The notes under the pieces are model-generated. The model was not told the DNA's origin and made no database searches. It saw only the letters and a program-made list of their open reading frames with translations. This document shows positions 2,037 through 45,334 of a stretch of 64,000 nucleotides of DNA, in pieces. How positions within the stretch are numbered: position 1 is the stretch's first letter; each line of letters opens with the position of its first letter. Source of the DNA: Gammaproteobacteria bacterium (GTDB lineage Bacteria > Pseudomonadota > Gammaproteobacteria > DSM-16500); contig JABDBD010000004.1 in the NCBI GenBank assembly GCA_013288815.1, forward strand, positions 18,404-82,403, read 5' to 3'. Made by a program: the position numbers and the translations under genes.

Positions 2037-2651
2037 ATGCGCAATTATATTCAAGATGAAATACAGAAAACGCTTACTGTGTTGTCACGTATTGAGCAAG
2101 ATGAAGCAATATTGACTGCAGCTGAAGACATTGCGAGACAGTGTATTACGGCATTACGACATGGCAACAAAATTTTATTTGCTGGTAATGGCGGTAGTGC
2201 GGCAGATGCTCAGCATTTAGCTGCAGAGCTAGTGAGCCGGTTATGTTACGATCGTCCAGCTTTGTCTGCGATTGCGTTAACAACGGATACGTCAGCGTTA
2301 ACGGCTATCGGTAATGATTATGCGTTTGAATATTTATTTGCTAGACAAGTCGAAGCATTAGGCCAAAAAGGCGATGTGCTGATTGGTATTTCAACATCTG
2401 GGAAATCAATGAATATTCTGCGAGCTTTTGAAGTTGCGCATGCTAAAGGCTTAATAACGGTTGGTTTTACACGAGATCATGCACCGTTAATGAGTGAGCG
2501 TTGTGATCTGACGTTGAATATTCCTGCGCGAGAAACTCCCAAAATACAAGAGTGTCATATTCTGTTTGGCCACATTATTTGTTCTTTGATCGAAGAAGAA
2601 ATATTTGGTGCTGAATACAATCCTAAGCGCCAAAAAGCCGCTGTTTTCTAA
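2037..2651 (+). CDS. gmhA: sedoheptulose-7-phosphate isomerase
   Basis: GNGGSAADAQHLAAEL, TAIGNDY, FARQVEALG, GISTSGKS, IQECHI. Confidence 0.93.
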   Translation: MRNYIQDEIQKTLTVLSRIEQDEAILTAAEDIARQCITALRHGNKILFAGNGGSAADAQHLAAELVSRLCYDRPALSAIALTTDTSALTAIGNDYAFEYLFARQVEALGQKGDVLIGISTSGKSMNILRAFEVAHAKGLITVGFTRDHAPLMSERCDLTLNIPARETPKIQECHILFGHIICSLIEEEIFGAEYNPKRQKAAVF

Positions 2652-3343
2652 TGCAGGCGATTATTTTAGCGGGAGGGTTTGGTACCCGATTGCGCTCGGT
2701 TATCGGCAATATTCCTAAGCCTATGGCGCCTATTCAGGGCAAACCTTTTTTAGCCTACCTGCTGGACTATCTTCAATCTCAAGGCATCACAGAAGTCGTG
2801 TTGTCTGTGCATTATCTATATGAACAAATACAAACTTACTTCAGTAACGCTTATCGAGGTATTGCGATCCATTACGCAATTGAGGATCAGCCTTTAGGCA
2901 CGGGTGGGGCAATTGTTCATGCGCTAGAGTCTATAAAAACTTTGCACCCTGTTTTTGTGTTAAATGGGGATACTTTTCTGCAGCTTGATTATCGCAATAT
3001 GTGGGATTTACACACAAAAAACTCGCCAGTATTGACGATGGCGTTGCGCAGTGTGCCTGACTGTTATCGGTATGGTGCAGTGCAAGTTGAGGGTAATACT
3101 GTCAACTCATTTAGTGAGAAAGGTGTTGTGCAGGCTGGTTTGATTAATGCTGGGGTCTATTTAATTGAGCCAACGTTATTCCACAATCTTCCTATCAACA
3201 AACAATTTTCATTTGAAAATGAATTCTTATTCCCCTTCGTTAAGCAGCTTAAACCCCAAGCATTTTTAGTCGATAATTACTTTATCGACATTGGGATCCC
3301 TGAGGATTATGCTAACGCTTTGAATCTGTTTCCTATTTTATAA
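2651..3343 (+). CDS. hddC: D-glycero-alpha-D-manno-heptose-1-phosphate guanylyltransferase-like nucleotidyltransferase
   Basis: LAGGFGTRLRS...PKPMAP, PLGTGGA, NGDT, FIDIGIPEDY; coupled to gmhA. Confidence 0.8.
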   Translation: MQAIILAGGFGTRLRSVIGNIPKPMAPIQGKPFLAYLLDYLQSQGITEVVLSVHYLYEQIQTYFSNAYRGIAIHYAIEDQPLGTGGAIVHALESIKTLHPVFVLNGDTFLQLDYRNMWDLHTKNSPVLTMALRSVPDCYRYGAVQVEGNTVNSFSEKGVVQAGLINAGVYLIEPTLFHNLPINKQFSFENEFLFPFVKQLKPQAFLVDNYFIDIGIPEDYANALNLFPIL

Positions 3344-24685: not shown

Positions 24686-25891
24686 ATGAACTGCAGAAAC
24701 TGCCATGGTGAAAACTTAGAATTAGTGATTGACTTAGGAATGCAGCCGTGGGGAAATAATTTTTTACCAATTTCTGTCAATCAAACAGTACCTCTTTATC
24801 CTCTGCAATCATTTTTTTGTCATGGCTGCACAATGATGCAGTTGGGATACACTGTGCCAAAAGAAACAATGTTTGTAGATCATAATTATGTTTCTGGGAC
24901 TACTCATTCGTTAAGAGTTCATTTTAAAAAACTCTGTGAGGATATGTTGAAGAAAATAAAATTTCAAGATACAGATTATGTTCTGGATATTGGTGGAAAT
25001 GATGGAACGTTTCTCGCGCAATTTGAAAATAAAGTGAAAGTATTAAATGTTGATTCGGGTGTAAAACAAGCTGAGATATCAAATTCGAATGGAATAGAAT
25101 GCATTAATCAATTTTTTAATTTAAAGACGGCTCAACAAATCTTATCGACACGAGGGCATGCGAAAGCAATTCATGGGTCAGGAGTATTTTTTCATCTGGA
25201 AGAGTTGCATTCTGTCTTTGAAGGCATTGAATTGTTGTTAGCAAAAGATGGTGTGTTGGTTGCTGAATTTATTTATCTTCCTGATATGGTGCGCAATGGT
25301 GCATACGATCAAATTTATCATGAGCATCTTTTATATTATACTTTGCATTCCTTCAGTAAGTTATTAGCTAAGCATCATCTTGAAATTCATGATGCTGAGT
25401 TATTACCTATTCATGGTGGAAGTTGTATTGCTTACATATCGCATCAGGGCGAACAAAAACAAACGGAACGATTAAAAGACTTGTTGGCAATCGAAGAAAA
25501 TGAAGGATTTAATACAGCTGATTGTTATAAGCAATTTGCAAAGCGAATTACGGGTATGCGAAATGATTTGGTCGCAATCATTCGGGATCTAAAAAATCAA
25601 GGTAAATCCATTCAAGCCTTAGGTGCCCCTGTTAAAGGTTCGACGATTATTAATTACTGTCAATTATCACATAACGAATTAGATTGCGCTGTTGAAGTGA
25701 ATCGTTTGAAGTGTGAAACGTATTTCCCCGGGACGAAAATTCCAGTCTACCATCAAGATGAAGTTGAAAAACCCGATGCTTATCTATTGTTGTCTTGGAA
25801 TTTTAAAGATGAAATTCTTTCTAAGTTAAACGATTTTCGCGCCAACGGCGGAAAAATTATTTCTCCGCTTCCTCAACCAGAATTAATTTAA
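24686..25891 (+). CDS. SAM-dependent NDP-hexose C-methyltransferase (TylCIII/NovU-type)
   Basis: N-terminal CxxC...LGMQPWGN...CxxC zinc site, DIGGNDG, YDQIYHEH, HGGS, GAPVKG, LLSWNF. Confidence 0.88.
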   Translation: MNCRNCHGENLELVIDLGMQPWGNNFLPISVNQTVPLYPLQSFFCHGCTMMQLGYTVPKETMFVDHNYVSGTTHSLRVHFKKLCEDMLKKIKFQDTDYVLDIGGNDGTFLAQFENKVKVLNVDSGVKQAEISNSNGIECINQFFNLKTAQQILSTRGHAKAIHGSGVFFHLEELHSVFEGIELLLAKDGVLVAEFIYLPDMVRNGAYDQIYHEHLLYYTLHSFSKLLAKHHLEIHDAELLPIHGGSCIAYISHQGEQKQTERLKDLLAIEENEGFNTADCYKQFAKRITGMRNDLVAIIRDLKNQGKSIQALGAPVKGSTIINYCQLSHNELDCAVEVNRLKCETYFPGTKIPVYHQDEVEKPDAYLLLSWNFKDEILSKLNDFRANGGKIISPLPQPELI

Positions 25892-25904
25892 TTGTGAGTG
25901 TGTT

Positions 25905-26843
25905 ATGAAAATATTAGTTACCGGTGCGACAGGATTTTTGGGATGTCATTTAGTAAAGCATTTAACACGTGCCAATCACGATGTCATTGGGCTGGGATCA
26001 AAAGACGCTAATTTATTAAACCCTGATGCGTTAAATAAATTCTCTGCAGAAAAATTCGATAGCATTTTTCATTTGGCGGCTTGGACGCAGGCAGGTGATT
26101 TTTGTTTAATACATCCTGGAGAACAATGGCTTATTAATCAGCAAATGAATACTACCGTGTTAAACTGGTGGCATCAACATCAACCGCAAGCCAAAATGAT
26201 TTCCATGGGTACTAGCTGCGCTTACGAAGAGGGGATTCATTTAAGTGAAGAAAAATACTTAGAAGGCTCTCCTATTAAAGATTTGTATTCATATGCAATG
26301 ACAAAACGCATGCTGCATATTGGCCAAGTCATGTTGAATAGACAATTTGGTTTAAACTATTTAACGATAGTACCATCAACGTTGTACGGCCCTGAGTATC
26401 ACCTAGGTACCAAACAAATGCATTTTATCTTTGATTTAGCATGGAAGATTTTAGATTTCAAATATTTTAAAAAGCCGGTCGTGTTGTGGGGCGATGGTCA
26501 GCAACGGCGTGAGTTAGTATTTGTCGATGATTTTATTTCGACTTTATTGCAATTAGATAACATTTCTCAAAACGATATTGTGAATATTGGAGCAGGTGAG
26601 GATTACACTATCCAAGAATTTGCAGAAGCAATTTGCCGCTGCGTCAATGTCGATAGTCGTTGTTTGCAGTATGATACGAGTAAATACGTGGGTGCGAAGT
26701 CAAAAATGCTATCCATTACAAAATTAGATGCCTTACTGCCGTATCGAGCAAAAACATCATTATTTGATGGGCTATCAAAGACGCTGCTATGGTTAGAAAA
26801 GCAGTTTTTGGTGATGAGTGAGCCTGCTGCCTTTGCTAAATAA
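25905..26843 (+). CDS. GDP-fucose-synthase-like NDP-4-keto-sugar epimerase/reductase
   Basis: GATGFLG, GTSCAY, YAMTKR, LWGDGQQRRE. Confidence 0.78.
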   Translation: MKILVTGATGFLGCHLVKHLTRANHDVIGLGSKDANLLNPDALNKFSAEKFDSIFHLAAWTQAGDFCLIHPGEQWLINQQMNTTVLNWWHQHQPQAKMISMGTSCAYEEGIHLSEEKYLEGSPIKDLYSYAMTKRMLHIGQVMLNRQFGLNYLTIVPSTLYGPEYHLGTKQMHFIFDLAWKILDFKYFKKPVVLWGDGQQRRELVFVDDFISTLLQLDNISQNDIVNIGAGEDYTIQEFAEAICRCVNVDSRCLQYDTSKYVGAKSKMLSITKLDALLPYRAKTSLFDGLSKTLLWLEKQFLVMSEPAAFAK

Positions 26844-28743: not shown

Positions 28744-31700
28744 TACGTCAATAAAGGCTCTCTTAAATTATCTCTTAAGTTATCTCTTAAGTTATCTCTT
28801 AAGTTATCTCTTAAGTTATCAGCAACGTTATTATTTGGCTGTCTAATTAAATCCTCAACGTCATCCCCTGCTACTTGAAGTGTGTCTCCAATCACTTTTT
28901 TCCCTATCAAGAAATCTGGGATATGTTTCTCAATCTCGCTTAAGGACTCGAGAAGTTGTTTTTTATTTTTCTTGAGGTAATCATGAAGTCCTTTGTTGTG
29001 TTCTTTTAGTTGCTTCATGACTTCTTTCACACGGTAGCCGGATTGACTCATCCACCATTGCAATGCTTTTAGTGCATCGAACTCAAGCTGCAATGTGCTT
29101 ACTTTAAAGAAACATGAAAAGCAACGAGTTCTATTCTTAGCTTTTTTTGTATCATTTTCAATGCAATTTATTAAATCAATTCTACTGGCTGTTGATAAAA
29201 ACGGTTTGAGCATCGTACCTGTTCGGCCCTCAGATAACAGATGACACTCACGATCAGTTAAAAAACTTGTGAAAATATGCAAGTTATTTTGATTTACTAG
29301 TTGTGCATATATTTTTTGGAGAGCATCCATTTTATCTTGTTTTATATTTGAAAATTGGCGAGCGTTGAATTTCTCGTTAAATAATTCATTTTTACGTTGA
29401 ACAATTTTATTTAAAAGCTCTATTTTCAAATTTTCTTTAATCACTCTCTCTTCATCAGCCAGTGCTTGCTGAGAAGATTGAATCCGCTTTACCATAAATT
29501 GTTTGGTTAGCCAATCATGACTACTTGCGGAAGAAAATAATTCACGACGTTGCGACAAAATTGCTTGTGTATATGGGAAGTTTTTTCCTCCTTCAAATCT
29601 ATAACCTAGCGCTGCTATTTTTGATGAAAATACTTCAACTATGTCGCGAAATGATTTTCCGCCAACCGATATAGCGCTTGATATATATCCTTCCTTTAAA
29701 TAAAGTTGAGTTTCTAATTTATCAAATAAAAGAGTAAAGTTATAAAGAACATGATTGATTTGTTTTGCTGCGTGCAGGAATTGATCCGTTGATAAAATAG
29801 ATAATGAGTCAATTAACTGAGAAGCGCGACTAGCAAATTTAAATAATTGGCGTGGATTTTTTAATATGAAGGCTATCGCAGATGTTTCTTTTTGCTGAGC
29901 GGCAATTAACATGTCTGCTTTTTCAAAGCCTTTCTTAACAGCAGCTTTGATAGTTTCGTCTCTATTTGAGAGGTCATTCAGCGCAGAATAGAGTAGTCGA
30001 ATATCCTGAAGCGCGCCTTTTAATGTATCATTATCAGAAGCATAATCATTTTTGCTAACCCAGGCTAGTTTTGCAGGATGATCCGATAAGGGCGCAACCG
30101 CCGCTTGTTGTAGAGTCCCTATTGCGCTCGTTAATAGATCCGCAATCGGTGGTAATGCATTAATAAACGGGTGATGGCGTAATGCTTGCAACTCTCCCAT
30201 CACGTTTGTCAGTGATGAGATAGTTGTATTTAAATTACGGATAGTTTGTTGGAAGTGACTAATGGGTATTGCGCGTCTTTTATCTTCAGCAGTTGCTTTT
30301 GCTTGTAAAATTTTAGCTTCATTTGCTAATTTCTTAATATGTTTAATCGACTGAGCAATTGGAACCATCCACGAGGTGAACATATTAATGTTAACATTGA
30401 CTAAATTATCTTGATACTTTTCCTCTGAGTGTTTTTCTTCTTCTGTCACATCAATACAAACTCTCAATAGACTATCATCAACAAAACAATCTTGATGAAT
30501 GTTTTGGTCTAATTCGTCTTTTAATTTTTCTTCACACTTGCCAACAATAGCAAGAACTCTATCAAACACATTTTCTTTTGACTCTGCACCGTTTGATTGA
30601 GTTATGACTGATATCAATTGCTTGGTACCGCTAATTAACGCTGGCACATCGCTATCAATTATTTCTTCTCGTACATTTTCATGTGATATAGGTATGATAG
30701 GCCAATTCGATATTGTTCGTGGTAATTGTTCTAATACTTTTTCTGCTTGTTCGATTAGCTCTTTGTTATCGCTTTCTTGTTTTTTGAACCAAGCAGTACG
30801 ATTGTTAATGCGATCCATTGCATTCTGATAAATTAAACGGATCTTTGTTATAATTGTTTTATTCGTTCCCTCTTTTATGTATTTTTTAATGACCGTATCC
30901 AAATCCGTTATGCTCAGTGGCAAATGAGCGACTGGTTTTTGAGACTGTTGTTGATCCGGGTTAGTTATCTCTGGCGGTAATTTAGATTTGAGTAGTAGAA
31001 GTTGTTCTTTTTTAGATTTTTCTCGACCAAGTGTTGTCGGGTTTTCTTCGTATTCACGAATTTTAGCATCAATGATATTGATACTTTGTTTTTTGGCATT
31101 TTCCCAAATGTTTTTTTGAACGGCATCTTCTTGAAGTAATTGTTGGGATAGTGCGATAGGAAATAATTTTCGTTCTGCTAAAATCGATTTTGAAAATGGA
31201 TAAAGCTCTTCACACATCGGGTAACCCGCTTTTTTCATATCAGAAACATAAAGGCGAGTAAATTTCTCTGCTAATTGATGAAATGATAATGTGATACGTG
31301 TTTCAGGTGCTGAGGCATTGCTACTGTTGTTACTGGTAGTGAAAATAGGTTCGTCCAGTAATTTTTGTTTGTCGAGTCCGGATCGGCTAGCGACTTTTTC
31401 TAATAATAAATATGCGCGACGTATTCGAGTATTTAATTCTGATGCAACAATTAAAATAATATCTTGAGCAGTTTCAGAATAACTTGAAAAGTTATCACCT
31501 AATTTTTCTTCCATTAAGCGAATACCATCCTGCAATTTTTGGATGTGAAATGGCGGTAAAATAGTACTAATTGAGAAAGCTGAGGCATTATTAGGGATAG
31601 AGTTATTGATAGCTGGAGTAGCCACCAATCCTCCAACAATAAGATCTAATTCAAGATTATTAAAGGCTTTGATTAGCTCTGGCCCAAGTTTAATCCGATC

Positions 31701-32099
31701 TATAGCGGCAGCAATAATTTGTGGTGTCGTGTTTTTTTTATCATGAACAATAATAGAAAATATTTTTACTTCTTCGATAAACTTTTTTAACTCTTTTGCA
31801 AATTGTCCCCATTTGCTATCAGCTGGATTAGGGCTGTTGGATGGTCGTTTCAGTGTTTCTAATTTTTTACTAGCCATATCAATAAAAGCCATAATAGCAG
31901 GAGCATGTTCGTGCCATTGCCACAACAGTTGCTGAAGCTGCACTAATGCACCTTGAGAGCTCTCCATGAATTCTTTGGGTTTTGTTGTTGCGAGATCATA
32001 CCAACTGATATCGGGAAGCACAGGCGAAGCTACTGTAGTGGAACTTGCTGAAGACGTTTGTGGCGAGGTTCTATGCATAAAAGATCTCTTGAAATCCAA
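28740..32099 (-). CDS. large alpha-helical hypothetical protein, candidate type IV secretion effector
   Basis: 1119 aa ORF, helical/coiled composition, no housekeeping motif; alternative start ATG 32078. Confidence 0.7.
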   Translation of the reverse strand: MDFKRSFMHRTSPQTSSASSTTVASPVLPDISWYDLATTKPKEFMESSQGALVQLQQLLWQWHEHAPAIMAFIDMASKKLETLKRPSNSPNPADSKWGQFAKELKKFIEEVKIFSIIVHDKKNTTPQIIAAAIDRIKLGPELIKAFNNLELDLIVGGLVATPAINNSIPNNASAFSISTILPPFHIQKLQDGIRLMEEKLGDNFSSYSETAQDIILIVASELNTRIRRAYLLLEKVASRSGLDKQKLLDEPIFTTSNNSSNASAPETRITLSFHQLAEKFTRLYVSDMKKAGYPMCEELYPFSKSILAERKLFPIALSQQLLQEDAVQKNIWENAKKQSINIIDAKIREYEENPTTLGREKSKKEQLLLLKSKLPPEITNPDQQQSQKPVAHLPLSITDLDTVIKKYIKEGTNKTIITKIRLIYQNAMDRINNRTAWFKKQESDNKELIEQAEKVLEQLPRTISNWPIIPISHENVREEIIDSDVPALISGTKQLISVITQSNGAESKENVFDRVLAIVGKCEEKLKDELDQNIHQDCFVDDSLLRVCIDVTEEEKHSEEKYQDNLVNVNINMFTSWMVPIAQSIKHIKKLANEAKILQAKATAEDKRRAIPISHFQQTIRNLNTTISSLTNVMGELQALRHHPFINALPPIADLLTSAIGTLQQAAVAPLSDHPAKLAWVSKNDYASDNDTLKGALQDIRLLYSALNDLSNRDETIKAAVKKGFEKADMLIAAQQKETSAIAFILKNPRQLFKFASRASQLIDSLSILSTDQFLHAAKQINHVLYNFTLLFDKLETQLYLKEGYISSAISVGGKSFRDIVEVFSSKIAALGYRFEGGKNFPYTQAILSQRRELFSSASSHDWLTKQFMVKRIQSSQQALADEERVIKENLKIELLNKIVQRKNELFNEKFNARQFSNIKQDKMDALQKIYAQLVNQNNLHIFTSFLTDRECHLLSEGRTGTMLKPFLSTASRIDLINCIENDTKKAKNRTRCFSCFFKVSTLQLEFDALKALQWWMSQSGYRVKEVMKQLKEHNKGLHDYLKKNKKQLLESLSEIEKHIPDFLIGKKVIGDTLQVAGDDVEDLIRQPNNNVADNLRDNLRDNLRDNLRDNLREPLLTY
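28759..28820. repeat. 12 bp coding tandem repeat, 5 units (NLRD)
   Basis: TCTCTTAA(G/A)TTA x5 encoding DNLRDNLRDNLRDNLRDNLRE on the minus strand. Confidence 0.95.
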
Positions 32100-32413: not shown

Positions 32414-33700
32414 TTATTTTGAAAATAAGTGTGATAGCAATCTCTGTGGATTATGAAAATCTAACCATTTCTCAGAAACCCATTTTGCAGTTTGTTCGTA
32501 TGCATCATATTGTGAAATCACTTTTAGCAAAGACTCTGAAATTGACTCCGATGTTAGATATATTTCACCCGCAAATTCCGGAAGTTCTGTTTTCGTTATT
32601 TTAAATTCATTGAGCTGTGATGACATCCAGCTATTCTGCGGGACAATAACAGGAATACCAGCCACTAATGCTTCGGTAAAAATGCCCGAGCTTCTGGCGG
32701 AGTATGCTGTGTTGTCATAAGGGAGTAGTATGATGTCACTGCGAAGAACGAGTTCACGGTAATCCGTTGGGCTTAAAGGTTGCATGAGTAATGTGACGAG
32801 CTCAGCAGGATAAGTTTCTAATATTCTTCGAGCAGCGACTGCTGCAGGTTCACCTTCTTCAATATTAAAGTTTGACTGAACGGTGAAATGAATAGGTCTT
32901 GGTGTCTTTTTCTGTATTTCATTAATAATTTTTGGCAGATGGTGATAGCCTTTCTCGGTGCGGGCATCGCCAATGTAGTTAATAAATAATTTATCTTTCT
33001 TAGCGATAGCGTTATTCTCACCAAAGTTTTTTTCAATCGGAATAGGTAAGGTGTTAAATGAGACTAAGTTTAATTGATTATATAGTTTTGTGAGTGGATC
33101 TGTATCGGTATAGAAAAAAACATTGTTACATTTCATTGTCTGTAGTAAATGAAGCGCTTTCTTCAGTTGGTCAGTATAAATATCAGAATGAAATAGCAAA
33201 TGCCACGCAGCCTTTTGATAATCAGTATTCTGTTTAAAAAAATGAATCAGCCCCATTAATTCATTTTCTGTTGTCGTTGGGATAAAAACGACATCGTTCT
33301 GTTGTAATGGTAATTGCGTAAAAAGGTTGGCAGTATCTTTTGTAAAAGCTTTGATTTTGTATCGAGTGAAAATAGCTTTTATAAAATGCTTAAATCGTTC
33401 TTTTTTATTTTTTTGAGTGATAGTGAGTGAATTATTTGTCGTGACAAGTTTGATATTTTTCTGTTTGAACCGGCGAAAAAAATAGTAGAGAGGGAATTTT
33501 TTCGGTACCAACCGTTGGCCCATACGATAAGTTGAAATAAAGTTTAATTCTGCATTTTCAGAATCTTGAAACTTTTTATTCACTGCTAAATAGGCGTGAT
33601 ATCCCATTTCGTTGGCGGCTCTGCACACGCGAGTTGAATACTCGTAATAGTGTCCAGTCCAGCCTTCGATGGCGGGTTCGATGAGAATAAATTTTTGCAT
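32414..33700 (-). CDS. GT-B (GT4-like) glycosyltransferase
   Basis: GWTGHYYEY, YIGDARTEKG, LLPYD..YSARSSGIFTEAL. Confidence 0.78.
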   Translation of the reverse strand: MQKFILIEPAIEGWTGHYYEYSTRVCRAANEMGYHAYLAVNKKFQDSENAELNFISTYRMGQRLVPKKFPLYYFFRRFKQKNIKLVTTNNSLTITQKNKKERFKHFIKAIFTRYKIKAFTKDTANLFTQLPLQQNDVVFIPTTTENELMGLIHFFKQNTDYQKAAWHLLFHSDIYTDQLKKALHLLQTMKCNNVFFYTDTDPLTKLYNQLNLVSFNTLPIPIEKNFGENNAIAKKDKLFINYIGDARTEKGYHHLPKIINEIQKKTPRPIHFTVQSNFNIEEGEPAAVAARRILETYPAELVTLLMQPLSPTDYRELVLRSDIILLPYDNTAYSARSSGIFTEALVAGIPVIVPQNSWMSSQLNEFKITKTELPEFAGEIYLTSESISESLLKVISQYDAYEQTAKWVSEKWLDFHNPQRLLSHLFSK

Positions 33701-33705: not shown

Positions 33706-34644
33706 TTAGATATTCGTATATCGACTATTTCGCAGGATAGAATACCCTTTAATTAACTCAATAATGCCTGCATCCAGCATGTATTCAGGTTTAAATCCGG
33801 TTTTTTCAATTTTTTCATTGGAGACTATGTAGTCACGTTTGTCGGGATCTTCACCAATAGCGGCTTCTGAGTAGACAAAGTCTTTGACGTGTTGTTGGAT
33901 TTTTTCACAGAGTTCAATTTTGGACAAATTCGCATTGCTTAAACCGACATTGTAGGCTTGGCCTTTCATGGTTTCAAAGTTTTTCAAAGCATGTAAAAAG
34001 GCGCGAGCGACATCTCGGACGTGTATAAAGTTTCGTTTAGCATGTCCCTCAAAAATAACCGCGGATCTATCCATCACAGCCCGATAAACAAAGTCGTTGA
34101 CTAACAAATCAATGCGCATGCGTGGAGACAAGCCAAATACGGTTGCTAAACGAAATGTAACGCTATTTCCAGCGTCTAAAACAGCTTTTTCTGCATCAAC
34201 TTTAGTGACACCATAAAGTGAAATAGGGCGTAAGGGTGTGTCTTCGGTGCAATATTTTCCTTTTTCGCCAATGCCATATCCGCTATTGGTTGTTGGATAA
34301 ATAATTTTTTGTTTGGGTGTGCGCAAGGACAGTAATAATTGAATGGCTTCAAAGTTAATAGAGCGAGCAGCTGTTTGGTCAAATTGGCAAGCTGGTGCAC
34401 CGACAATAGCTGCTAGCGGTATAATAATGTCTGCATTTTTCATGACCTTTTCCATCAAGGTGCGGTCCCTGCAGTCACCCCGAACAACTTCAAAGTCAGG
34501 ATTTGCACAGCATTCAAGTAAGCTATTCTGTGAAAATAAAAAAATATCTAAAACCGTAACGTGATATCCCGCACTTAATAAAGCAGGTGCTAATGTAGAT
34601 CCCAAATAGCCTGCGCCGCCGGTAATTAAAATGCGTTCTTTCAC
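33706..34644 (-). CDS. NAD-dependent GDP-heptose 4-dehydrogenase-like SDR (Cj1427-like)
   Basis: GGAGYLG, IIPLAAIVGAP, TTNSGYGIGEK, TFRLATVFG.SPRMR.DLLVNDF, IGEDPDKRDY; GTG start 34644 with AAGGAAG RBS. Confidence 0.8.
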   Translation of the reverse strand: MKERILITGGAGYLGSTLAPALLSAGYHVTVLDIFLFSQNSLLECCANPDFEVVRGDCRDRTLMEKVMKNADIIIPLAAIVGAPACQFDQTAARSINFEAIQLLLSLRTPKQKIIYPTTNSGYGIGEKGKYCTEDTPLRPISLYGVTKVDAEKAVLDAGNSVTFRLATVFGLSPRMRIDLLVNDFVYRAVMDRSAVIFEGHAKRNFIHVRDVARAFLHALKNFETMKGQAYNVGLSNANLSKIELCEKIQQHVKDFVYSEAAIGEDPDKRDYIVSNEKIEKTGFKPEYMLDAGIIELIKGYSILRNSRYTNI

Positions 34645-34744
34645 GATAAGCTTCCTTTTTTGCAGTAGAATAATGATGGCAATACTACTGAAATATTGAT
34701 GTAGGGGCAAGAAATCTGAGGATTGCAGGTTTTGATTTTTATTC

Positions 34745-35893
34745 CTAGCTGATGGGCTGGTTAGGTTTTAGGTGTAATAAAAAATCACTAATGGGGATAC
34801 ACAATATATTTTGTTTTAATATTTTTTCTTTGCCACCATAAAGTAACAGGGTGGTGCATGTTGGGTAATCATTTTTAAATTCCTGCAATCCTCTTAAGTC
34901 GGCTGGCTTAATAGAGGCTGATTTTTTTACTTCAATAGCAAAGAAGCCAATCTCCCCATAAATAATAAAATCCACTTCTAGCCCAGATTTAGTGCGCCAA
35001 AAATAGAGTGTGCCCTCTTTGTCCGAATAGTCTATCCATGCTCTTAGATGTTGGGCGACTAAGGTTTCAAGAGCATGACCAGCTATTTCTTCTGGATTAT
35101 CGAGTGGCCCCATAGGGCGAATTGATTGAAAGACTCCAGCATCAAAAAAATAAAATTTTGGGTGGTGTGTCAGGATTCGTTTTGCTTTTTTAGTAAAAAT
35201 GGTCAGTTTAAAACTAAGCAAGAGGTCTTCTAAAATTTGTACGTAATTCTCAACGGTATTGCTGCTAATATGGCACTCACGAGCAATATTGGTATAGTTA
35301 ATGATGGATGCTTGCGAGAAACTAATAACTTCTAAGAACTGGCTGAATTGATCTACTTTTCGAACGAGTCCTTCCATTTGGACTTCTTCTTGCATATAAA
35401 GAGCGATATATGTTTTTAGGTCATTGACTGGATCTATCGAGTTTAACACCAATGGCAGCATGCCTAGTTTTAAATTTTTTTCTAAGTGGAATTGTTTTGG
35501 AATTTCAGCAGCCATAAAGGGGTGTAAGTGTTTTAGCTGTGCTCTGCCGGCTAATAAATCGACGCCTGTTCTTTTTAATTTTCTAGCGCTAGATCCGGTT
35601 AAAATAAACCGCCAACCCTTTTTCATTTCTATTAATTGGTGAACGACACTTAATAGCTCAGGAACCTTTTGCACTTCATCAATAACAAAGGTTTTTGTCA
35701 TTGGATCAGCTAATACTAAGTCTAATAATCTTTCTGGATAGGCTCTATATTGTCGATAAGAGGCTGGGTCTAATAGGTCAACAATAGTTACATTGTTAAT
35801 TTTATTAACTAACAATGACTTACCTGTTCCTCGAGGTCCAAATAAAAAAAAACTTCTTTCAGAAACATGGAAAAAACGAGGTACTATTTCCAT
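34745..35893 (-). CDS. AAA+ ATPase with DUF4143 C-terminal domain
   Basis: GPRGTGKS, IDEVQ, LTGSS, LAGRA, PKFYFFDAG, EVDF..AIEVK. Confidence 0.88.
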   Translation of the reverse strand: MEIVPRFFHVSERSFFLFGPRGTGKSLLVNKINNVTIVDLLDPASYRQYRAYPERLLDLVLADPMTKTFVIDEVQKVPELLSVVHQLIEMKKGWRFILTGSSARKLKRTGVDLLAGRAQLKHLHPFMAAEIPKQFHLEKNLKLGMLPLVLNSIDPVNDLKTYIALYMQEEVQMEGLVRKVDQFSQFLEVISFSQASIINYTNIARECHISSNTVENYVQILEDLLLSFKLTIFTKKAKRILTHHPKFYFFDAGVFQSIRPMGPLDNPEEIAGHALETLVAQHLRAWIDYSDKEGTLYFWRTKSGLEVDFIIYGEIGFFAIEVKKSASIKPADLRGLQEFKNDYPTCTTLLLYGGKEKILKQNILCIPISDFLLHLKPNQPIS

Positions 35894-36002
35894 TTTTCCT
35901 TCCTTTTTTGAATTAGTGTTTCATAAAAGGATACTAAAATATTGCATGAAAATCAATTCAACAATCGCTAAACTGACGGCAAATATATTTAGGAGCAACG
36001 TT

Positions 36003-37241
36003 GTGCCTCAACCAAATCAAAATCTCAATATAACAACAGCCGATTTTATAGTGATTGGCGCAGGAGTCATTGGTTTAAATATTGCAAGAGAGTTAAAACG
36101 ACGTTTCACGGATAGCCATATTATTGTTATCGAAAAAGAAAATGAAGTGGCTGAGCATGCGAGTGGGCGCAATAGTGGTGTGTTGCATGCCGGATTTTAT
36201 TATACAAAAGACAGCCTCAAAGCAAAATTTACTCGCGATGGAAATAAAGCATTAACCGAGTATTGCGAAGAAAAAAAAATTGCTATGAATCGTTGTGGAA
36301 AATTAGTCGTTGCTCGCCATGAAGGAGAGTTGTCTGGATTAAATGAATTACTCCATCGCGGTAAACAAAATGGAATTGAATTACAATTTATTTCTGAACA
36401 AGAAGCGCGTGAAATTGAGCCGCGTGTCAAAACATTTGCGCATGCGCTTTTTTCGCCGACGACATCATCTGTATCTCCAAAAGTAGTGATGGAGAATATT
36501 TTAGTAGATGCTGAACGAGAAAAAATTAACGTATTAAAGGGCGTGAAATATTTGGGAAGAAAATATAATAAAATTCGTACGAACAACGGAATATTCGAGG
36601 CGGCTTATATTATTAATACCGCGGGTTTGTATGCGGATTTGATTGCCAAAGATTTTGGGTTCTCAAAAAACTACACGATTCTTCCCTTTAAGGGATTATA
36701 TCTTTATGCTTCAAATTCAAATGAGAAACTCAATACGAATATCTATCCTGTTCCTAACTTGCATAATCCATTTTTAGGCGTTCATTTTACAGTGACTGTC
36801 GATGGAAAAGTCAAAATAGGGCCGACAGCGATTCCAGCCTTTTGGCGTGAGCATTATCAAGGTTTTTCAAGATTTAATCTTTCTGAAATATATAAAATAG
36901 TATTATGTGAGTTAGGATTATTTGTAAAAGCGGGTTTTGATTTTCGCAATTTAGCATTTGAAGAAATTAAAAAATATAGCCGCAGTGTGTTGACCAAGCA
37001 TGCCAGTGAATTAGCAACACACATTCATAAAAGTAATTATGTAACCTGGGGGAAGCCAGGTATCAGGGCGCAATTGTTAAATACACAGACACGCAAATTA
37101 GAAATGGATTTTATTATCGAAGGGGATAATAAATCCATGCATGTTCTGAATGCGGTTTCGCCAGCGTTTACGTGTTCTATACCGTTTTCACGATATGTGG
37201 TCGATAAAATTGAGGTTCAGCTTTCTCGTAGTCACGGTTGA
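36003..37241 (+). CDS. lhgO: L-2-hydroxyglutarate oxidase/dehydrogenase
   Basis: IGAGVIG, HASGRNSGVLHAGFYY, IYPVP..PFLGVHFT, GIRAQ, NAVSPAFT; GTG 36003 after AGGAG. Confidence 0.82.
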   Translation: MPQPNQNLNITTADFIVIGAGVIGLNIARELKRRFTDSHIIVIEKENEVAEHASGRNSGVLHAGFYYTKDSLKAKFTRDGNKALTEYCEEKKIAMNRCGKLVVARHEGELSGLNELLHRGKQNGIELQFISEQEAREIEPRVKTFAHALFSPTTSSVSPKVVMENILVDAEREKINVLKGVKYLGRKYNKIRTNNGIFEAAYIINTAGLYADLIAKDFGFSKNYTILPFKGLYLYASNSNEKLNTNIYPVPNLHNPFLGVHFTVTVDGKVKIGPTAIPAFWREHYQGFSRFNLSEIYKIVLCELGLFVKAGFDFRNLAFEEIKKYSRSVLTKHASELATHIHKSNYVTWGKPGIRAQLLNTQTRKLEMDFIIEGDNKSMHVLNAVSPAFTCSIPFSRYVVDKIEVQLSRSHG

Positions 37242-38338
37242 GCAGCTGGAGTAAGACTTAAGCTGGCTTCTTGATAAGCAGAAATTTGACTGAGAGTGAT
37301 GCGCGCCATGTCTGCGTCTTGATGCCATGCTTTGTGCCATATGACAACTTGTTCTAATGCTTTTTCTAATGACCACCGTGGTTTCCAGCCAAGATCAGTA
37401 TAAGCAAGCGTACTATCTAATTTCAGTAAATGCGTTTCATGTAATGGTGTATGAATAGCTTCTAACTCTATATGTGCATTGTCACCCCAACGTTGCGCCA
37501 ACATCTCAGCGACTTGACTGACGGTGGCGTCACCTTTTGCATCCGGCCCGAAATTCCAAGCGCGGGCAAATTGATTGCCAGTAGCTGAGAGTAGGTGTTC
37601 GGCAAGTTGAAGATAACCTGCTAGGGGTTCTAATACATGTTGCCAGGGGCGTATTGCGTGAGGAAAACGCAAGCGTACAGGTTTTTTTGCTTTAAATGCG
37701 CGTAAACAATCTGGCACTAGCCTGTCAACAGCCCAATCTCCGCCACCTATCACATTGCCAGCACGAACTGTTGCGACGCGAATGGGGTGGTCTGATTCCT
37801 CATTAAAAAAACTTTCTCGATAACTTGCGGTCACTAGTTCTGCGGCGGCTTTAGAAGCGCTATAGGGATCATGACCCCCGAGTGCATCTGTTTCGCGATA
37901 AGCATGATAATGCTCTCGATTCTGATAGACTTTGTCTGTTGTAACGATAATGATTGCGCGAATCGAGTCACTAGTGCGTGCAGCTTCTAAAACATGTGCT
38001 GTGCCAAGAATATTACTGGTTAATGTGCCTAGAGGGTTACGATAGCTTTCTCGTACTAACGGTTGAGCTGCTAAATGAAAGATAATTTCTGGGCGCGACT
38101 GCTGGATGGTTGATTTCAATTGTTCGAGGTCTGCAAGATCAGCGCGAGTCTCTGACGTGAGTAGCTTAGCAATCTTGGCAACGTCAAATAAGTTGAGTTG
38201 AGTAGGAGGTTCAAGAGAGTAACCATGAATGTTCGCGCCAAGATGATGTAACCACGATGTAAGCCATCCACCTTTGAAGCCAGTGTGGCCAGTGATTAAG
38301 ACTGAGCGATTTTTCCATACATTTGCGTGTATCTTCAT
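37232..38338 (-). CDS. rfbG: CDP-glucose 4,6-dehydratase
   Basis: [54 protein letters not shown]. Confidence 0.95.
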
Positions 38339-39168
38339 GCGATATCCACTGTTTCTTTTATCTCGGTATGTTTCAACACATTGGGTTTAGACCATATGTC
38401 CCAGGGCGCATCGCCTGAATTCCAAAGGTTTTCAAGATGATTTTTATCCCGCAACGTATCCATGGGTTGCCAAAATCCATTATGTTCATAAGCCATCAAT
38501 TGGCCGTTTGCAGCAAGTGTATTTAATGGGGTTTCTTCCCAACTTGTTGTGTCATTATCAATAAGTGCAAGACACTTAGGCGAGAGAATAAAAAAACCAC
38601 CGTTAATCATGCCGCCATCACCTCGAGGTTTTTCCATAAAACCGGAAACCTTCTTGTTGTGGTCTAGCTGTAGAGCACCAAAACGACCGGGTGGTTTAAC
38701 AGCTGTGATGGTAGCCCACTTGCCATGTTGCTGATGAAAAAGAAGTTGTGCTGAGATGTCAATATCAGCCACACCATCGCCATAAGTAAAACAAAAAGCA
38801 TCTTCGTCAATAAGATAGTTAGCAACGCGTTTCAGACGGCTTCCAGTGGGTGTGTTTTCACCTGTATCGACGAGTGTGACTTTCCAGGGTTCTGCGTTTT
38901 GTTGGTGGACTTCCATGGTGTTGTTCGCGATATCAAAAGTGATATCTGACATATGTAAAAAATAATTTGCAAAGTATTCTTTGATGAGATAGCCCTTATA
39001 ACCACAGCAAATGATAAACTCATGGATGCCATGAGCGCTGTATATTTTCATGATATGCCAAAGTATCGGTTTGCCGCCGATTTCAATCATCGGCTTTGGT
39101 CTGGCATTGGATTCTTCCGAAATGCGAGATCCTAATCCGCCTGCGAGAATAACAGCTTTCATATCCAT
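38335..39168 (-). CDS. rfbF: glucose-1-phosphate cytidylyltransferase
   Basis: [46 protein letters not shown]. Confidence 0.95.
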
Positions 39169-39620: not shown

Positions 39621-40892
39621 TTAGCTTTCTGCGATTCGAAATGCATGCTCCATATAATCTTGCTCTCTCATTGATATCCCCAGGGATCTTGCTTCTTTGC
39701 GCCAACCTTTAACTGCTTTAATGACTTCTTGAATAATTTTGTTAGCGCGCTCTGGTTTTATTCTGAAATATTCAGCAACTTCTTTGGCAAGTATGAGGTC
39801 TTGTGAGTTGTCAGTTTCAGAAATATTTAGTTTTAATCCGTTACCACTAGCAACTGGATTAATATCATATGCGGGTGATAGCACCCATCCATTGTCTTGT
39901 AGAATAAAGCCGTGATTTCTCAAATGATCATCTACATTGGAAACACAAATAAAAAATACAATTCTTGTCCACAATTGTGTCAGATCCTGTTCGGGTTGTG
40001 CGCCTTGTTGCATGATGAATTCAGCAAGTTCCAGATAACTTGCTCCTTTCGATGCGTCATCACCATCAGAATGTTGAAGTAATGTCATAGCAGAAGCAAA
40101 ATGAATACGTTCACCCTGGTTGGTACGATCAAATCGTTTACTGATAAAGGTGTGATGGCGGCTATTGAATTTCTGTAGCATCGCTTTTGGTATATTGAGT
40201 TTTGCACGTTCCGCGAGGTTATAGACAATCATTTCCCATGCACCAATATCGTATTCATCATTTCCACTGGGAAATTTAGCGATCCATAAATGTTTTTTTT
40301 CATCGACAACGCTTGCTTTAGGGCGAGCACCACCTAATGATCCGCCCGGTGCAATAAGCATTTGTAACCATTTTGAGTAGCTTGGATTTTTTTCTGAATT
40401 TTCTTTTTCAAGCTCTAAACTTGCATGTTCTAATTCTCGCAATGAAGTCCAAGGTGGTGAAGCATAAGTTTTGTTGTTATCCAGAAAAGGTCCTTGTGGA
40501 TCCGTGCGAAATCGAAGCGCGCCCATGCGATGTTCATCATAAACTCCTAAGAGATAATCTGATTCTAAAAGTTTTTTTTCTTTGCGACCTTCCTCGCGAG
40601 CAAGTTGTGCTTCTCGACGGTTCATGAGGAAGCGTCCCCAGCGATCAGGGGAGGAATCTAGAAAGATTCCAAAATTTTCTTGCCCTTGAGGAGCATATTG
40701 TGGCCCTTGAAATAACTGAAGGGATGGATCTAAAGCATGGGCTTGATTATGCTTAAGCCATTCGTGGTTATACTCGAAAGAAAATATTTCTTTGCCGCGT
40801 GAAAGGGCAGCATGTAAAACGCCTACCAAGGTTGGTTGAGATAAGCCTATCCAGTGTGCGTGGACTTCAATATGCTGCTGGGTTTTATTCAT
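39621..40892 (-). CDS. hipA: HipA-family kinase toxin
   Basis: DSSPDRWGR, GGSLGGARPKA, WIAKFPS, DDHLRNHGF, LSPAYDINP. Confidence 0.92.
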   Translation of the reverse strand: MNKTQQHIEVHAHWIGLSQPTLVGVLHAALSRGKEIFSFEYNHEWLKHNQAHALDPSLQLFQGPQYAPQGQENFGIFLDSSPDRWGRFLMNRREAQLAREEGRKEKKLLESDYLLGVYDEHRMGALRFRTDPQGPFLDNNKTYASPPWTSLRELEHASLELEKENSEKNPSYSKWLQMLIAPGGSLGGARPKASVVDEKKHLWIAKFPSGNDEYDIGAWEMIVYNLAERAKLNIPKAMLQKFNSRHHTFISKRFDRTNQGERIHFASAMTLLQHSDGDDASKGASYLELAEFIMQQGAQPEQDLTQLWTRIVFFICVSNVDDHLRNHGFILQDNGWVLSPAYDINPVASGNGLKLNISETDNSQDLILAKEVAEYFRIKPERANKIIQEVIKAVKGWRKEARSLGISMREQDYMEHAFRIAES

Positions 40893-41223
40893 GAGATTTT
40901 TTCTTTGTTGATTTTAATTTTGGTGCGCGTGCTTTGATGGGTAGGTCAGCATCTTGAAGCTTCCGACCTAGTTCATCATCACGTGCTATTAACCGTAAAT
41001 CTTTCTCAAGACCTAAGCAGAGTAAAACATTAACATAAGCACTGAATGTTACGCTTGCATCTCCTCGTTCAATTGCTCGAAGTGTATTGCGAGCAATTCC
41101 CGCGCGCTCAGCAACCATGGCTGCAGAAAATTTCCGTCGCAGCCGTGCTAGACGAATGTTTTCGCCCATTTCTGCCAACAAACGTTGTGCAGATGGTAGT
41201 ATTGGTTTTTTCTCTCTTCCCAT
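40885..41223 (-). CDS. Xre HTH antitoxin (HipB-like)
   Basis: GENIRLARLRR...AERAGIARNTLRAIERG; overlaps the hipA start. Confidence 0.88.
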   Translation of the reverse strand: MGREKKPILPSAQRLLAEMGENIRLARLRRKFSAAMVAERAGIARNTLRAIERGDASVTFSAYVNVLLCLGLEKDLRLIARDDELGRKLQDADLPIKARAPKLKSTKKKSHE

Positions 41224-41455
41224 AATGGTCAATACCTTAAACGTTTATATATATTAATGTTTATACTATTGATCATTATAGCAGATATTTTATGTAAGAG
41301 AATAGAATTTGCATGAGTATGTACCTCATAGCAGAATCTGCATTGACCTTTAATATAGTAATATAGCTACCATACTGTAATTGTTTTTTTTCATAAAAAT
41401 GCATATAATTACCCTGTAAAAATGACAATTGAATGATAAAATACAGGGTATTTTT

Positions 41456-42781
41456 ATGAAAAGGGCAATTATTCAAGAGCTTATAAAATGGAAAAATGCG
41501 CCTGGCAGAATGCCCTTGTTGGTGAGAGGGGCGCGTCAAACTGGTAAAAGCTACATTATTAAGCGCTTAGGACAAGACTATTTCAAGAATACAATTATCA
41601 TCAATTTTGAGTTAGAGCCTCGTTACAAAAATTGTTTTAAGACGCTTGATCCCAAAAAAGTTATTCAAGAAATAGAAATACTCTCTAATCAAAGTGTTGT
41701 TCCTGGTGAAAGTCTTTTATTCTTGGATGAAATCCAAGAATGTCCCGCCGCTATCCAGTCTTTACGATATTTTTTTGAAAATTTACCTAATCTCCATGTA
41801 ATTGGAGCGGGATCATTTCTTGAATTTAGCTTGGGAGAAAAAACGCATGGTATGCCTGTTGGCCGTGTAGAATTTCAATATCTTTATCCAATGACGTTTA
41901 GTGAAATGTTGATAGTCTTAGCAGAGGATAAGATATTAGAGTTTATGAAAAATTTGCGAATCACTGATACGATACCTACTTCTATTCACCAAAAATTACT
42001 AGAATTAATGCGCTTATACTGCATAACAGGAGGTATGCCACAGGTCTTAGCGCACTATTCAGAACACAGAAATTTATTACAATGCCGTCACATGCAGACT
42101 GCTTTATTAAACACGTATCGCTCTGATTTTGGAAAATATGCTACCCGCGTACAGCAACAATTTTGTGAACGTGTTTTTGAAAAAGCACCAACGTTAATAT
42201 GCCAACATTTTAAGTATACGGATATTGATCCTGATTTAGATGGTCGATCCATCAAAGCTGCCATCAAGTTACTTTGTAAGGCCAATGTCTTAACACCAAT
42301 TTATTATACGTCTGCAAATGGCTTACCTTTATCTGCTACACAGATAGAAAAACGTTATAAGTTATTATTTTTGGATATTGGATTAGTACAAGCTAGCTCT
42401 CACATCTCACCCGAGCTGTTACTTAATCAAGATTTAATGCAAATTAATCGCGGGACTTTGACAGAACAATTCATTGGTCAGCATCTTATCACTTTGCAAG
42501 CCAGCAATGATCGCGCAACTTTGTATTACTGGCAACGTGATGCGCGTGGCAGCCAAGCTGAAGTAGATTATGTCATTGCATTAGGATCACAAATCATTCC
42601 CATGGAAATCAAAGCAGGAAAAACAGGACGTTTAAAATCCTTGCATCTTTTTATGGAATCACACAAAAGTCAGTTAGGGATTAAACTCTCTCAAGAAAGT
42701 TTTAATACTCGCGAAAAAATTTGGGTGGTACCCTTGTATCTGATTGAAGAATTGCCACGATTGATAGAAAACGCCAGGTAG
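41456..42781 (+). CDS. AAA+ ATPase with DUF4143 C-terminal domain
   Basis: GARQTGKS, LDEIQ, GAGS, PVGRV, GGMP, AEVDY..PMEIKAG. Confidence 0.88.
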   Translation: MKRAIIQELIKWKNAPGRMPLLVRGARQTGKSYIIKRLGQDYFKNTIIINFELEPRYKNCFKTLDPKKVIQEIEILSNQSVVPGESLLFLDEIQECPAAIQSLRYFFENLPNLHVIGAGSFLEFSLGEKTHGMPVGRVEFQYLYPMTFSEMLIVLAEDKILEFMKNLRITDTIPTSIHQKLLELMRLYCITGGMPQVLAHYSEHRNLLQCRHMQTALLNTYRSDFGKYATRVQQQFCERVFEKAPTLICQHFKYTDIDPDLDGRSIKAAIKLLCKANVLTPIYYTSANGLPLSATQIEKRYKLLFLDIGLVQASSHISPELLLNQDLMQINRGTLTEQFIGQHLITLQASNDRATLYYWQRDARGSQAEVDYVIALGSQIIPMEIKAGKTGRLKSLHLFMESHKSQLGIKLSQESFNTREKIWVVPLYLIEELPRLIENAR

Positions 42782-42817
42782 CTTAAACACTCCTCAGAAC
42801 TTTAATACTTTAATACT

Positions 42818-42845
42818 TTGACATACTTATAATAACTTATATAAT
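42818..42845 (+). promoter_or_regulatory. consensus sigma70 promoter
   Basis: TTGACA (42818-42823)-N16-TATAAT (42840-42845). Confidence 0.7.
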
Positions 42846-44275: not shown

Positions 44276-45334
44276 TTACTCATGTGTTTCAACAGTGAGT
44301 CTTTCTAAATGACGATAGTCACGGCGATTCATCGTCGTTTCGCTATACTGCATATTGTCATAAAAAATAATTTGCGAACCAGCAGATTCAAATTGAAATG
44401 GGACTAGTAATAAATCTTTTAATGCTTCACACAGCTTAGCTTTATTTTCTGGCGTTACAAAAAACAACATGAAACCGCCGCCGCCTGCACCTAATAATTT
44501 TCCGCCGATAGCGCCAGATTTTTTAGCTCTATCGTAAATATCATCGATGAATGTCGGTGATATATTTTGACTGATTTTGCGTTTTAACATCCAACTTTCA
44601 TGTAAAAGTCGGCCAAAGTCGGTGATGTCGCTTCCGTTTGACAGGATGTCAATCGATTCGTCTACCATTTTATGCATAGCATGTAATTCATTTTGTTTTT
44701 TGGGTATCGATAGGATTTTATCAGCTGCAATATCAGAAGCAGTACGAGAAATTCCTGTAAAAAACAATACGAGATGGTCTTGTAAAGCATGTAACCGTTG
44801 TTGCGGTAAGACTAATGGGGAAACATCAAAATTTCCACTAGGTTGTATAGTAATTTTGTTGAGTCCACCAAAAGCAGTTTGAATTTGATCTTGAGTGCCA
44901 ACGTTTTCTCTTAAGATGTCGCGTTCAACATGGATGGCCTCGGTTGCTAATTTCCGTTTGCTGGAGATATTTCCCCGTAACGCATGCATGGCATTCAGTA
45001 ATCCGACAGTAAATGCAGAACTGGAGCCCAAGCCAGATCGAGAAGGAAGATCACCTTGATGATGAATTTCAACGCCTTGGTTAATTTGTAAGTAATTTAA
45101 AGCAGCTCTAACGACAGGATGTTGTATATCGTCGTGTTCAAAGACTTCTTCAACTTTGTTCCAGACGACTCGTGTTTTATGCTTGAAAAACGCAGGAAGT
45201 AATCGGCAATGCAAATAACAATAATGATTAATCGTTGTAGCAAGTACAGCCCCGCCATGCTCTTGAAACCACGTATGATAATCAGTGCCACCGCCAAAAA
45301 AAGAAACTCGAAAAGGTGTGCGGCTGATTATCAT
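44276..45334 (-). CDS. hddA: D-glycero-alpha-D-manno-heptose-7-phosphate kinase-like GHMP kinase
   Basis: SRTPFRVSFFGGGTD, RSGLGSSS, GTQDQ, GAGGGGF. Confidence 0.82.
   Translation of the reverse strand: MIISRTPFRVSFFGGGTDYHTWFQEHGGAVLATTINHYCYLHCRLLPAFFKHKTRVVWNKVEEVFEHDDIQHPVVRAALNYLQINQGVEIHHQGDLPSRSGLGSSSAFTVGLLNAMHALRGNISSKRKLATEAIHVERDILRENVGTQDQIQTAFGGLNKITIQPSGNFDVSPLVLPQQRLHALQDHLVLFFTGISRTASDIAADKILSIPKKQNELHAMHKMVDESIDILSNGSDITDFGRLLHESWMLKRKISQNISPTFIDDIYDRAKKSGAIGGKLLGAGGGGFMLFFVTPENKAKLCEALKDLLLVPFQFESAGSQIIFYDNMQYSETTMNRRDYRHLERLTVETHE

Follow-up and report, generated by a model that had tools for sequence, protein, structure and literature searches.

The short-chain dehydrogenase/reductase (SDR) Cj1427 of Campylobacter jejuni requires 2-oxoglutarate (2-OG) in stoichiometric amount in vitro, and to our knowledge it is not known how cells that carry it avoid a drain on 2-OG and a build-up of L-2-hydroxyglutarate (L-2-HG). 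Here we describe a stretch of 64,000 nucleotides from a gammaproteobacterium (assembly GCA_013288815.1, contig JABDBD010000004.1, positions 18,404 to 82,403; hereafter the window) in which a Cj1427-type SDR lies one gene away from LhgO, a flavoprotein of the L-2-HG dehydrogenase family. We propose, with a probability of about 0.7, that the two enzymes form a redox loop in which 2-OG and L-2-HG act as a catalytic shuttle for surface-sugar synthesis. The proposal rests directly on the identification of the two proteins, on the complete L-2-HG pocket of the flavoprotein and on how strongly the two families co-occur and co-localise. In the searched literature, no paper was found that connects LhgO with Cj1427, with heptose, with polysaccharide or glycan synthesis or with the Coxiella O-antigen.

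The closest demonstrated analogue of the couple would be WbpB and D-2-HG dehydrogenase in the O-antigen synthesis of Pseudomonas aeruginosa, with SerA and D-2-HG dehydrogenase as another. WbpB is an enzyme of the Gfo/Idh/MocA type, whereas the producer in the window is an extended SDR. WbpB holds its NADH tightly and re-oxidises it by reducing 2-ketoglutarate (that is, 2-OG) to D-2-HG, which inhibits the enzyme; a dehydrogenase that uses flavin adenine dinucleotide (FAD) restores 2-OG and is needed for full glycan synthesis, since deletion of its gene (PA0317) lowers the O-antigen (PMC8651671). The couple in the window can be likened to this one but differs in the enantiomer (D-2-HG there, L-2-HG proposed here) and in the recycler, which belongs to the DAO family in the window and to another family in P. 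aeruginosa. Also, the genes for producer and recycler are clustered here and often share one operon elsewhere, whereas PA0317 is not described as lying within the O-antigen cluster (PMC8651671). The published account of Cj1427 describes a tightly bound, non-exchangeable NADH that is re-oxidised by alpha-ketoglutarate in a ping-pong reaction yielding L-2-HG (PMC10680097).

The SDR and the LhgO flavoprotein

The two genes are as follows.

33706..34644, minus strand: Cj1427-type extended SDR, predicted nucleoside diphosphate (NDP)-heptose C4-dehydrogenase, 312 amino acids (PDB match, Pfam Epimerase, catalytic triad)
36003..37241 (alternative start 35946), plus strand: LhgO, L-2-hydroxyglutarate dehydrogenase, 412 amino acids (NF008726, match to 8w75, five pocket residues)

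The open reading frame (ORF) of the SDR spans 33706-34710, and reading from the ATG at 34644 gives the 312-residue protein. Its best match among all PDB sequences is 6vo6/6vo8 (E 6e-117, 393 bits), which we take to be Cj1427 although the entry is titled only 'Putative sugar-nucleotide epimerase/dehydratease'. Residues 1-311 align with residues 1-311 of 6vo6 at about 60% identity, as judged by eye, and the second-best PDB match is far behind (1.5e-21). A first-pass annotation, made from the DNA letters alone, had recognised four Cj1427 motifs in this protein and suggested a direct comparison with Cj1427. All four motifs (IIPLAAIVGAP, TNSGYGIGEK, SPRMRIDLLVNDF and IGEDPDKRDY) are indeed present and align with the same motifs in 6vo6/6vo8, and the comparison yields the full-length match just described. 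The protein also matches Pfam Epimerase at 2.7e-33, carries TGGAGYLGS as its Gly-rich NAD-binding motif, and has an S121/Y144/K148 triad that is invariant or nearly so in our alignment (A1). Judged by sequence, it is a true member of the Cj1427 type.

The closest relatives of the window SDR are planctomycete proteins (70-75% identity), with which it also groups in the SDR tree. In the 7 other genomes of the genus, a single-protein search gave no orthologue, the sole match being a family member of 34% identity in genome G003. For these reasons the gene looks horizontally acquired. In another genus of the order, a true orthologue (59% identity) occupies a compact HddA-SDR-GmhA cluster (locus L169, genome G077, contig C69, 5597-8266). 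The single LhgO of G077 lies on a different contig, inside an rml operon devoid of RmlB.

The search of longer proteins that contain a Cj1427-like SDR brought up two kinds of natural fusion. P0002-P0009 join such an SDR (59-63% identity) to a DegT/EryC1 aminotransferase; one of these fusions is filed under the mayfly Ephemera danica and is probably a bacterial contaminant. In P0011, P0012 and P0016 the partner is a nucleotidyltransferase. The aminotransferase fusions would couple an enzyme that produces 2-OG with one that consumes it, which fits the shuttle but is only suggestive.

The flavoprotein, a member of the DAO family, is encoded by an ORF at 35793-37241. Its true start is probably the GTG at 36003, which is preceded by AGGAG 7 nucleotides upstream and gives a protein of 412 residues, the same length as in relatives; ATG 35946 is an alternative and TTG 35793 is unlikely. 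The protein scores 320.5 bits on the NCBIfam model for L-2-hydroxyglutarate oxidase (NF008726, cut-off 299) over profile positions 2-389, and its FAD-binding GxGxxG motif reads VIGAGVIG. Among solved structures, Drosophila L2HGDH is the closest (8w75, 4.8e-50). In the Drosophila enzyme, five residues (S88, H92, Y289, H302 and R393) hold 2-OG or L-2-HG, and their mutation abolishes or impairs activity (PMC10726252). The equivalents of all five are kept in the window protein, as they are in E. coli LhgD, in the proteins of relatives and in every full-length homologue linked to a Cj1427-like SDR. The proposal that the gene next but one to the SDR belongs to the LhgO family is thus upheld, both by the score above cut-off and by the complete L-2-HG pocket.

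E. coli LhgD (LhgO, b2660) and Drosophila L2HGDH share with the window protein the family model, the FAD motif and the five substrate residues, but identity to LhgD is only 32%. The genetic setting differs as well. In E. coli, lhgD is part of glaH-lhgD-gabDT, a cluster for glutarate and lysine catabolism, whereas the window gene, the sole member of its family in the 2.48-Mb assembly (83% complete), sits in a glycan locus. A tblastn search with E. coli GlaH gave no match in this assembly or in any of the fetched loci. We considered membership of a glaH-lhgO unit and rejected it for this genome because GlaH has no homologue there. No lysine or glutarate catabolic genes were seen nearby either, in line with the first-pass annotation.

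Pairing of the two families in other genomes

Loci with orthologues of the window SDR (53-76% identity) were collected by scanning species genomes and metagenomes. The 134 loci obtained, 123 of them distinct, provide 1288 kb of flanking DNA, and 82 of the distinct loci have at least 5 kb of flank; neighbours were identified by tblastn with the proteins of the window. An LhgO-type gene lies within 8 kb of the Cj1427-like gene in 13 of the 123 distinct loci, that is, in 13 of the 82 with sufficient flank. If one LhgO per 3-Mb genome is assumed, at most 0.43 such loci are expected by chance (Poisson 2e-15). All but one of the 13 LhgO-type genes are on the strand of the SDR, and three are directly adjacent to it (gaps of 14, 80 and 166 bp). 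Six are canonical (321-555 bits on NF008726), and five form a subfamily of 378 amino acids that scores below the cut-off (217-272 bits). The carriers that could be named belong to the Gemmataceae, the Verrucomicrobiae and the Pseudobdellovibrionaceae or are alphaproteobacterial, and the LhgO-linked loci occupy about 10 separate places on the SDR tree. The pairing foreseen from the window alone therefore recurs at Cj1427-like loci of several phyla.

The commonest neighbours of the SDR are an HddA-like kinase (82/134 loci; homologues at a median identity of 50%) and an HddC-like nucleotidyltransferase (77/134), so that each of the two kinds is a flanking gene in about 60% of orthologous loci. 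A ranking of all 1973 ORFs of the genome by their count of matched SDR loci puts LhgO at about the 36th place, level with GmhA. Among the ORFs with a higher rank, those in the window, to which annotation was confined, are all of sugar-nucleotide enzyme families. In several heptose operons (L048, 6139-8724; L110; L112) a gene for a B12-binding radical SAM protein stands immediately before the short 378-residue LhgO-type gene, and a gene for an RfbH-like enzyme of the pyridoxal phosphate type follows it.

Both families were also searched in 86 genomes of the window's own order. Here a single-protein search had given the first impression that the LhgOs of relatives lack a Cj1427 partner, which a profile search overturned. 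A profile built from orthologues only sets the Cj1427-related subfamily (160-214 bits) apart from other SDRs (92 bits or less), and the best PDB match of the order's Cj1427-family SDRs is Cj1427 itself (2e-32 and 3e-30). A Cj1427-family SDR is found in 26 of the 86 genomes and LhgO in 30. Both are present in 24 genomes, the SDR alone in 2, LhgO alone in 6 and neither in 54 (Fisher 1.3e-13 across genomes). The predicted co-occurrence is thereby borne out, LhgO being present in 24/26 genomes with the SDR as against 6/60 of the others. Restricting the count to genomes that are at least 90% complete gives 16/1/5/36 in the same order of classes (p 4e-9), and counting by genus gives 7/1/3/10 (p 0.0075). 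The two genes come and go together within genera g1, g6, g9 and g14, and they lie no more than 10 kb apart in 15 of the 24 genomes that have both.

Two operon types stand out. Type A, found in six genomes of three genera, reads LhgO-(GmhA)-HldE-like-NTP transferase-SDR-GmhA2-x-transketolase N/C. With its flanking genes (L015 of G015, 2927-12873; L158-L160, L163 and L164) the order is pfkB-ManC-LhgO-GmhA-HldE-like-NTP transferase-SDR-GmhA2-x-split transketolase, a higher-sugar pathway with a transketolase step. Type B, found in three genomes of two genera, reads RmlA-LhgO-RmlC-SDR-x-RmlD, x being an unknown protein of 336 amino acids (L157 of G023, 2155-7778; L161 of G068; L162 of G077). Genes are translationally coupled inside the operons of G015 and G023.

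The type B operon, which does not occur in the window, invites comparison with the RmlA-RmlB-RmlC-RmlD pathway to dTDP-L-rhamnose. RmlA, RmlC and RmlD are encoded in one operon in G023, G068 and G077, but no RmlB (dTDP-glucose 4,6-dehydratase) above the family cut-off was found in these three genomes. LhgO and the SDR thus stand where the 4,6-dehydratase would be. This is what would be expected if the SDR made a 4-keto sugar by net oxidation with an external oxidant. Such a replacement of RmlB would imply oxidation at C4 without 6-deoxygenation, following the logic of Cj1427/Cj1430/Cj1428, and, for the type B operon, a dTDP-L-hexose that retains its 6-hydroxyl.

The proposed shuttle and its rivals

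In the proposed loop, the sugar substrate of the SDR would be supplied by the products of the GmhA, HddA-like, GmhB-like and HddC-like genes that are scattered in the locus. The SDR would hold NAD(H) tightly, as Cj1427 does, and regain NAD+ by reducing 2-OG to L-2-HG. The flavoprotein encoded at 36003-37241 would turn L-2-HG back into 2-OG and deliver the electrons to the respiratory chain, so that SDR and LhgO would jointly act as a quinone-linked sugar-nucleotide 4-oxidase. This would make 2-OG catalytic, drive the keto-sugar step forward and remove an inhibitory by-product. Probably the same LhgO also serves a second Cj1427-family SDR of this genome (see below). We infer the use of 2-OG by the window SDR, the L-configuration of the product, the electron acceptor and the sugar substrate; the use of 2-OG and the formation and oxidation of L-2-HG are taken from homology. 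The first-pass suggestion that lhgO is kept in this glycan locus to recycle the co-substrate gains support from the pairing statistics, with its biochemistry likewise resting on homologues.

Several observations weigh against the shuttle. In the window itself, LhgO is on the strand opposite to the SDR, with an ATPase gene between them, and the two are not co-transcribed. Dependence on 2-OG is known for Cj1427 alone among its family, and no fusion of an SDR to LhgO (SDR-DAO) occurs among the longer SDR-containing proteins searched. Of the 82 Cj1427-like loci with 5 kb of flank or more, 69, the great majority, lack a nearby LhgO. Among 20 sampled SDR genomes from other phyla that have no adjacent LhgO, 4 possess a canonical LhgO and 7 one of the short type, and 9, five of them Clostridia, have none anywhere or a gene of another type; in the absence of a matched background these whole-genome figures are only weakly informative. 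Within the order, G003 and G105 carry the SDR without LhgO. Together, the SDR genomes without LhgO indicate that the partnership is common but optional. As to the order-level count, related genomes are not independent samples, and the profile used took in SDRs that had first been found beside LhgO, a possible bias; the latter is answered by the orthologue-only profile, which supports the same grouping of SDRs.

The strongest rival, which we nevertheless regard as unlikely, accepts that LhgO recycles L-2-HG but holds that its real partner is another SDR, of the native Coxiella type, and that adjacency to the acquired orthologue is a by-product of rearrangement. This second Cj1427-family SDR is of type A and lies at C4:91194-92009, 36 kb from LhgO, where it is cut by the contig end. 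It is one of several pieces of a type A operon that are spread over about 90 kb of this genome: pfkB lies at 5965, GmhA and HddC lie at 2037-3343, this SDR closes contig C4 and the transketolase genes open contig C32. The window LhgO is itself of the local kind, being 65-71% identical to the LhgOs that head type A operons in G015, G110 and G111 (genus g9), whereas the window SDR has a planctomycete affinity and, by the single-protein search, no orthologue in the rest of the genus. Since the type A pieces are scattered and LhgO is of the type A kind, it seems that an ancestral type A operon was broken up and LhgO left alone on the plus strand. The 1.4-kb adjacency of LhgO and SDR may thus owe something to rearrangement, and the share of selection in it is uncertain. 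On the other hand, LhgO-type genes adjoin true orthologues of the window SDR in other phyla, and therefore this enzyme type has the partnership as well. Moreover, the native-partner explanation and the shuttle with the window SDR are compatible, one LhgO being able to serve both SDRs, as the window LhgO probably does. Within this lineage, the association of LhgO is with the Cj1427 family as a whole and not only with the window SDR.

A second rival, which we consider distinctly improbable, treats LhgO as an ordinary enzyme of metabolite repair or catabolism whose position in a glycan locus is inherited synteny without a functional link. In its favour, other dehydrogenases too can form L-2-HG in side reactions (PMC10726252). 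The order includes six genomes with LhgO but no Cj1427-family SDR, and the window LhgO stands by itself on the plus strand amid minus-strand operons. Inherited synteny, however, cannot explain the pairing in Planctomycetota, Verrucomicrobiota, Alphaproteobacteria and Bdellovibrionota, nor the joint presence and absence within g1, g6, g9 and g14, nor the translational coupling in G015 and G023; and the usual catabolic partner, GlaH, is missing from this genome and from all comparison loci.

Least probable of all is a flavoprotein that works in the glycan pathway on something other than free L-2-HG (another 2-hydroxy acid, a sugar-bound acid or glycerol phosphate): the window protein barely passes the LhgO cut-off and is distant from LhgD, and the C-terminal third of the sub-threshold 378-residue subfamily resembles type 2 glycerol-3-phosphate oxidase, but several SDR-linked genes are textbook LhgOs (509-555 bits), and a different substrate is argued against by the retention of all five L-2-HG contacts in every member, the short subfamily and the Arg that binds the C5 carboxylate included, whereas the glycerol-phosphate oxidase mpGlpO conserves only four of the five, His302 not among them (PMC10726252).

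Beyond this genome, we tentatively suggest, at a little under even odds, that a Cj1427-family SDR and LhgO make up a widespread two-enzyme module that takes the place of 4,6-dehydratases in opening the way to 4-keto sugar nucleotides with a retained 6-hydroxyl. It would operate in GDP-heptose pathways, in dTDP-hexose pathways (where RmlB is replaced) and possibly in CDP-sugar pathways, and the 2-OG/L-2-HG shuttle would wire glycan synthesis to the respiratory quinone pool. If the shuttle exists, a dedicated and often co-transcribed LhgO would answer how a drain on 2-OG and a build-up of L-2-HG are avoided, and it would give LhgO a physiological role beyond lysine and glutarate catabolism. The SDR/LhgO couple would then be the L-enantiomer, gene-clustered counterpart of the WbpB couple. 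It would also supply a rule for annotation, namely that an LhgO gene in a glycan operon, such as the RmlB-less rml operons of relatives, points to a C4-dehydrogenase of the ping-pong kind and so to a 4-keto sugar whose synthesis involves no 6-deoxygenation. Capsule or lipopolysaccharide synthesis in bacteria with the module may depend on LhgO, a possible weak point.

The glycan locus around the pair

The window is a mosaic surface-glycan locus of an uncultured bacterium akin to Coxiella and Legionella. The features that bear on the pair, or that interrupt the locus, are listed below.

2037..2651, plus strand: GmhA, sedoheptulose 7-phosphate isomerase (TIGR00441, 190.5 bits, just under the cut-off of 209)
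2651..3343, plus strand: HddC-like heptose 1-phosphate guanylyltransferase (NF049965, 256 bits, cut-off 300)
19501-20043: GmhB-like phosphatase (below the equivalog cut-off)
24686..26843, plus strand: sugar C-methyltransferase and SDR reductase (Pfam Methyltransf_13/14, Epimerase)
32414..33700, minus strand: GT4-like glycosyltransferase (weak Glycos_transf_1 match)
34745..35893, minus strand: AAA_14 + DUF4143 ATPase, the intervening gene (Pfam)
37232..38338, minus strand: RfbG, CDP-glucose 4,6-dehydratase (488 bits on TIGR02622)
38335..39168, minus strand: RfbF, glucose-1-phosphate cytidylyltransferase (460 bits on TIGR02623)
39621-41232: HipA-like kinase and helix-turn-helix partner (island)
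41429-42781: second DUF4143 ATPase (island)
43042-43764: Vut_1 transporter (island)
43901-44251: TnpB C-terminal remnant (island)
44276..45334, minus strand: HddA-like GHMP kinase of the heptose 7-phosphate kinase type (NF049969, 160 bits, below cut-off)

As with Cj1427, putative genes for heptose activation of the HddA and HddC types accompany the SDR, both in the window and in most orthologous loci. The setting differs from that of Cj1427 in that the SDR is surrounded by the GT4-like transferase, the ATPase, LhgO and the CDP-glucose genes, and no Cj1430-type 3,5-epimerase was found in this genome. Candidates for all four types of heptose-activation gene are present in the window (at 2037, 44276, 19501 and 2651), which makes a supply route to GDP-heptose plausible, but they are dispersed and each scores below its equivalog cut-off. 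The immediate glycan neighbours are rfbG and rfbF, the heptose genes lying elsewhere in the window. rfbG converges on LhgO, and the two genes overlap by 10 bp where LhgO ends. G008, a relative, has LhgO and rfbG in one operon, with rfbF divergent from it. The GT4-like gene begins 5 bp downstream of the SDR in the same operon, and in 15 of the 134 fetched loci (duplicates included) the SDR is likewise followed by a homologue of this gene.

Possible downstream users of the 4-keto sugar, and the likeliest ones, are the C-methyltransferase and the SDR reductase at 24686-26843. The same pair (44% and 52-60% identity) recurs beside Cj1427-like genes, for example in L026, L038, L045, L062, L063 and L069. 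A scan of 32-39.7 kb for promoters and terminators was uninformative, with 20 promoter-like sites against 22.5 expected.

The intervening ATPase is probably unrelated to the pathway. No homologue was seen in any of the Cj1427-like loci or the relatives' LhgO loci compared, and the genome holds about 9 diverged paralogues, a pattern that fits the earlier suggestion of a later insertion. Recent duplication was considered and set aside: the ATPase aligns only in part with the copy at 41429-42781, and at just 27% identity, and so it is not a fresh duplicate but one member of the diverged family of about 9 copies.

That second copy belongs to an island (39621-44251) which divides the glycan locus; beyond it come the HddA-like kinase and genes for Wzc and Wza. 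Between the two halves of the locus, the minus strand at 28740-32099 encodes a protein of 1119 amino acids that has no Pfam or NCBIfam match and ends in five DNLR repeats. It is adjoined by a protein of 410 amino acids, also without a family match (27274-28506). Use of 2-OG extends to sugar dehydrogenases of the Gfo/Idh/MocA type, WbpB among them. Beside WecB and WecC, the plus strand at 54553-56670 encodes a fusion of 705 amino acids that combines a zinc-type alcohol dehydrogenase domain with a Gfo/Idh/MocA oxidoreductase domain, and this protein could therefore be another source of 2-HG.

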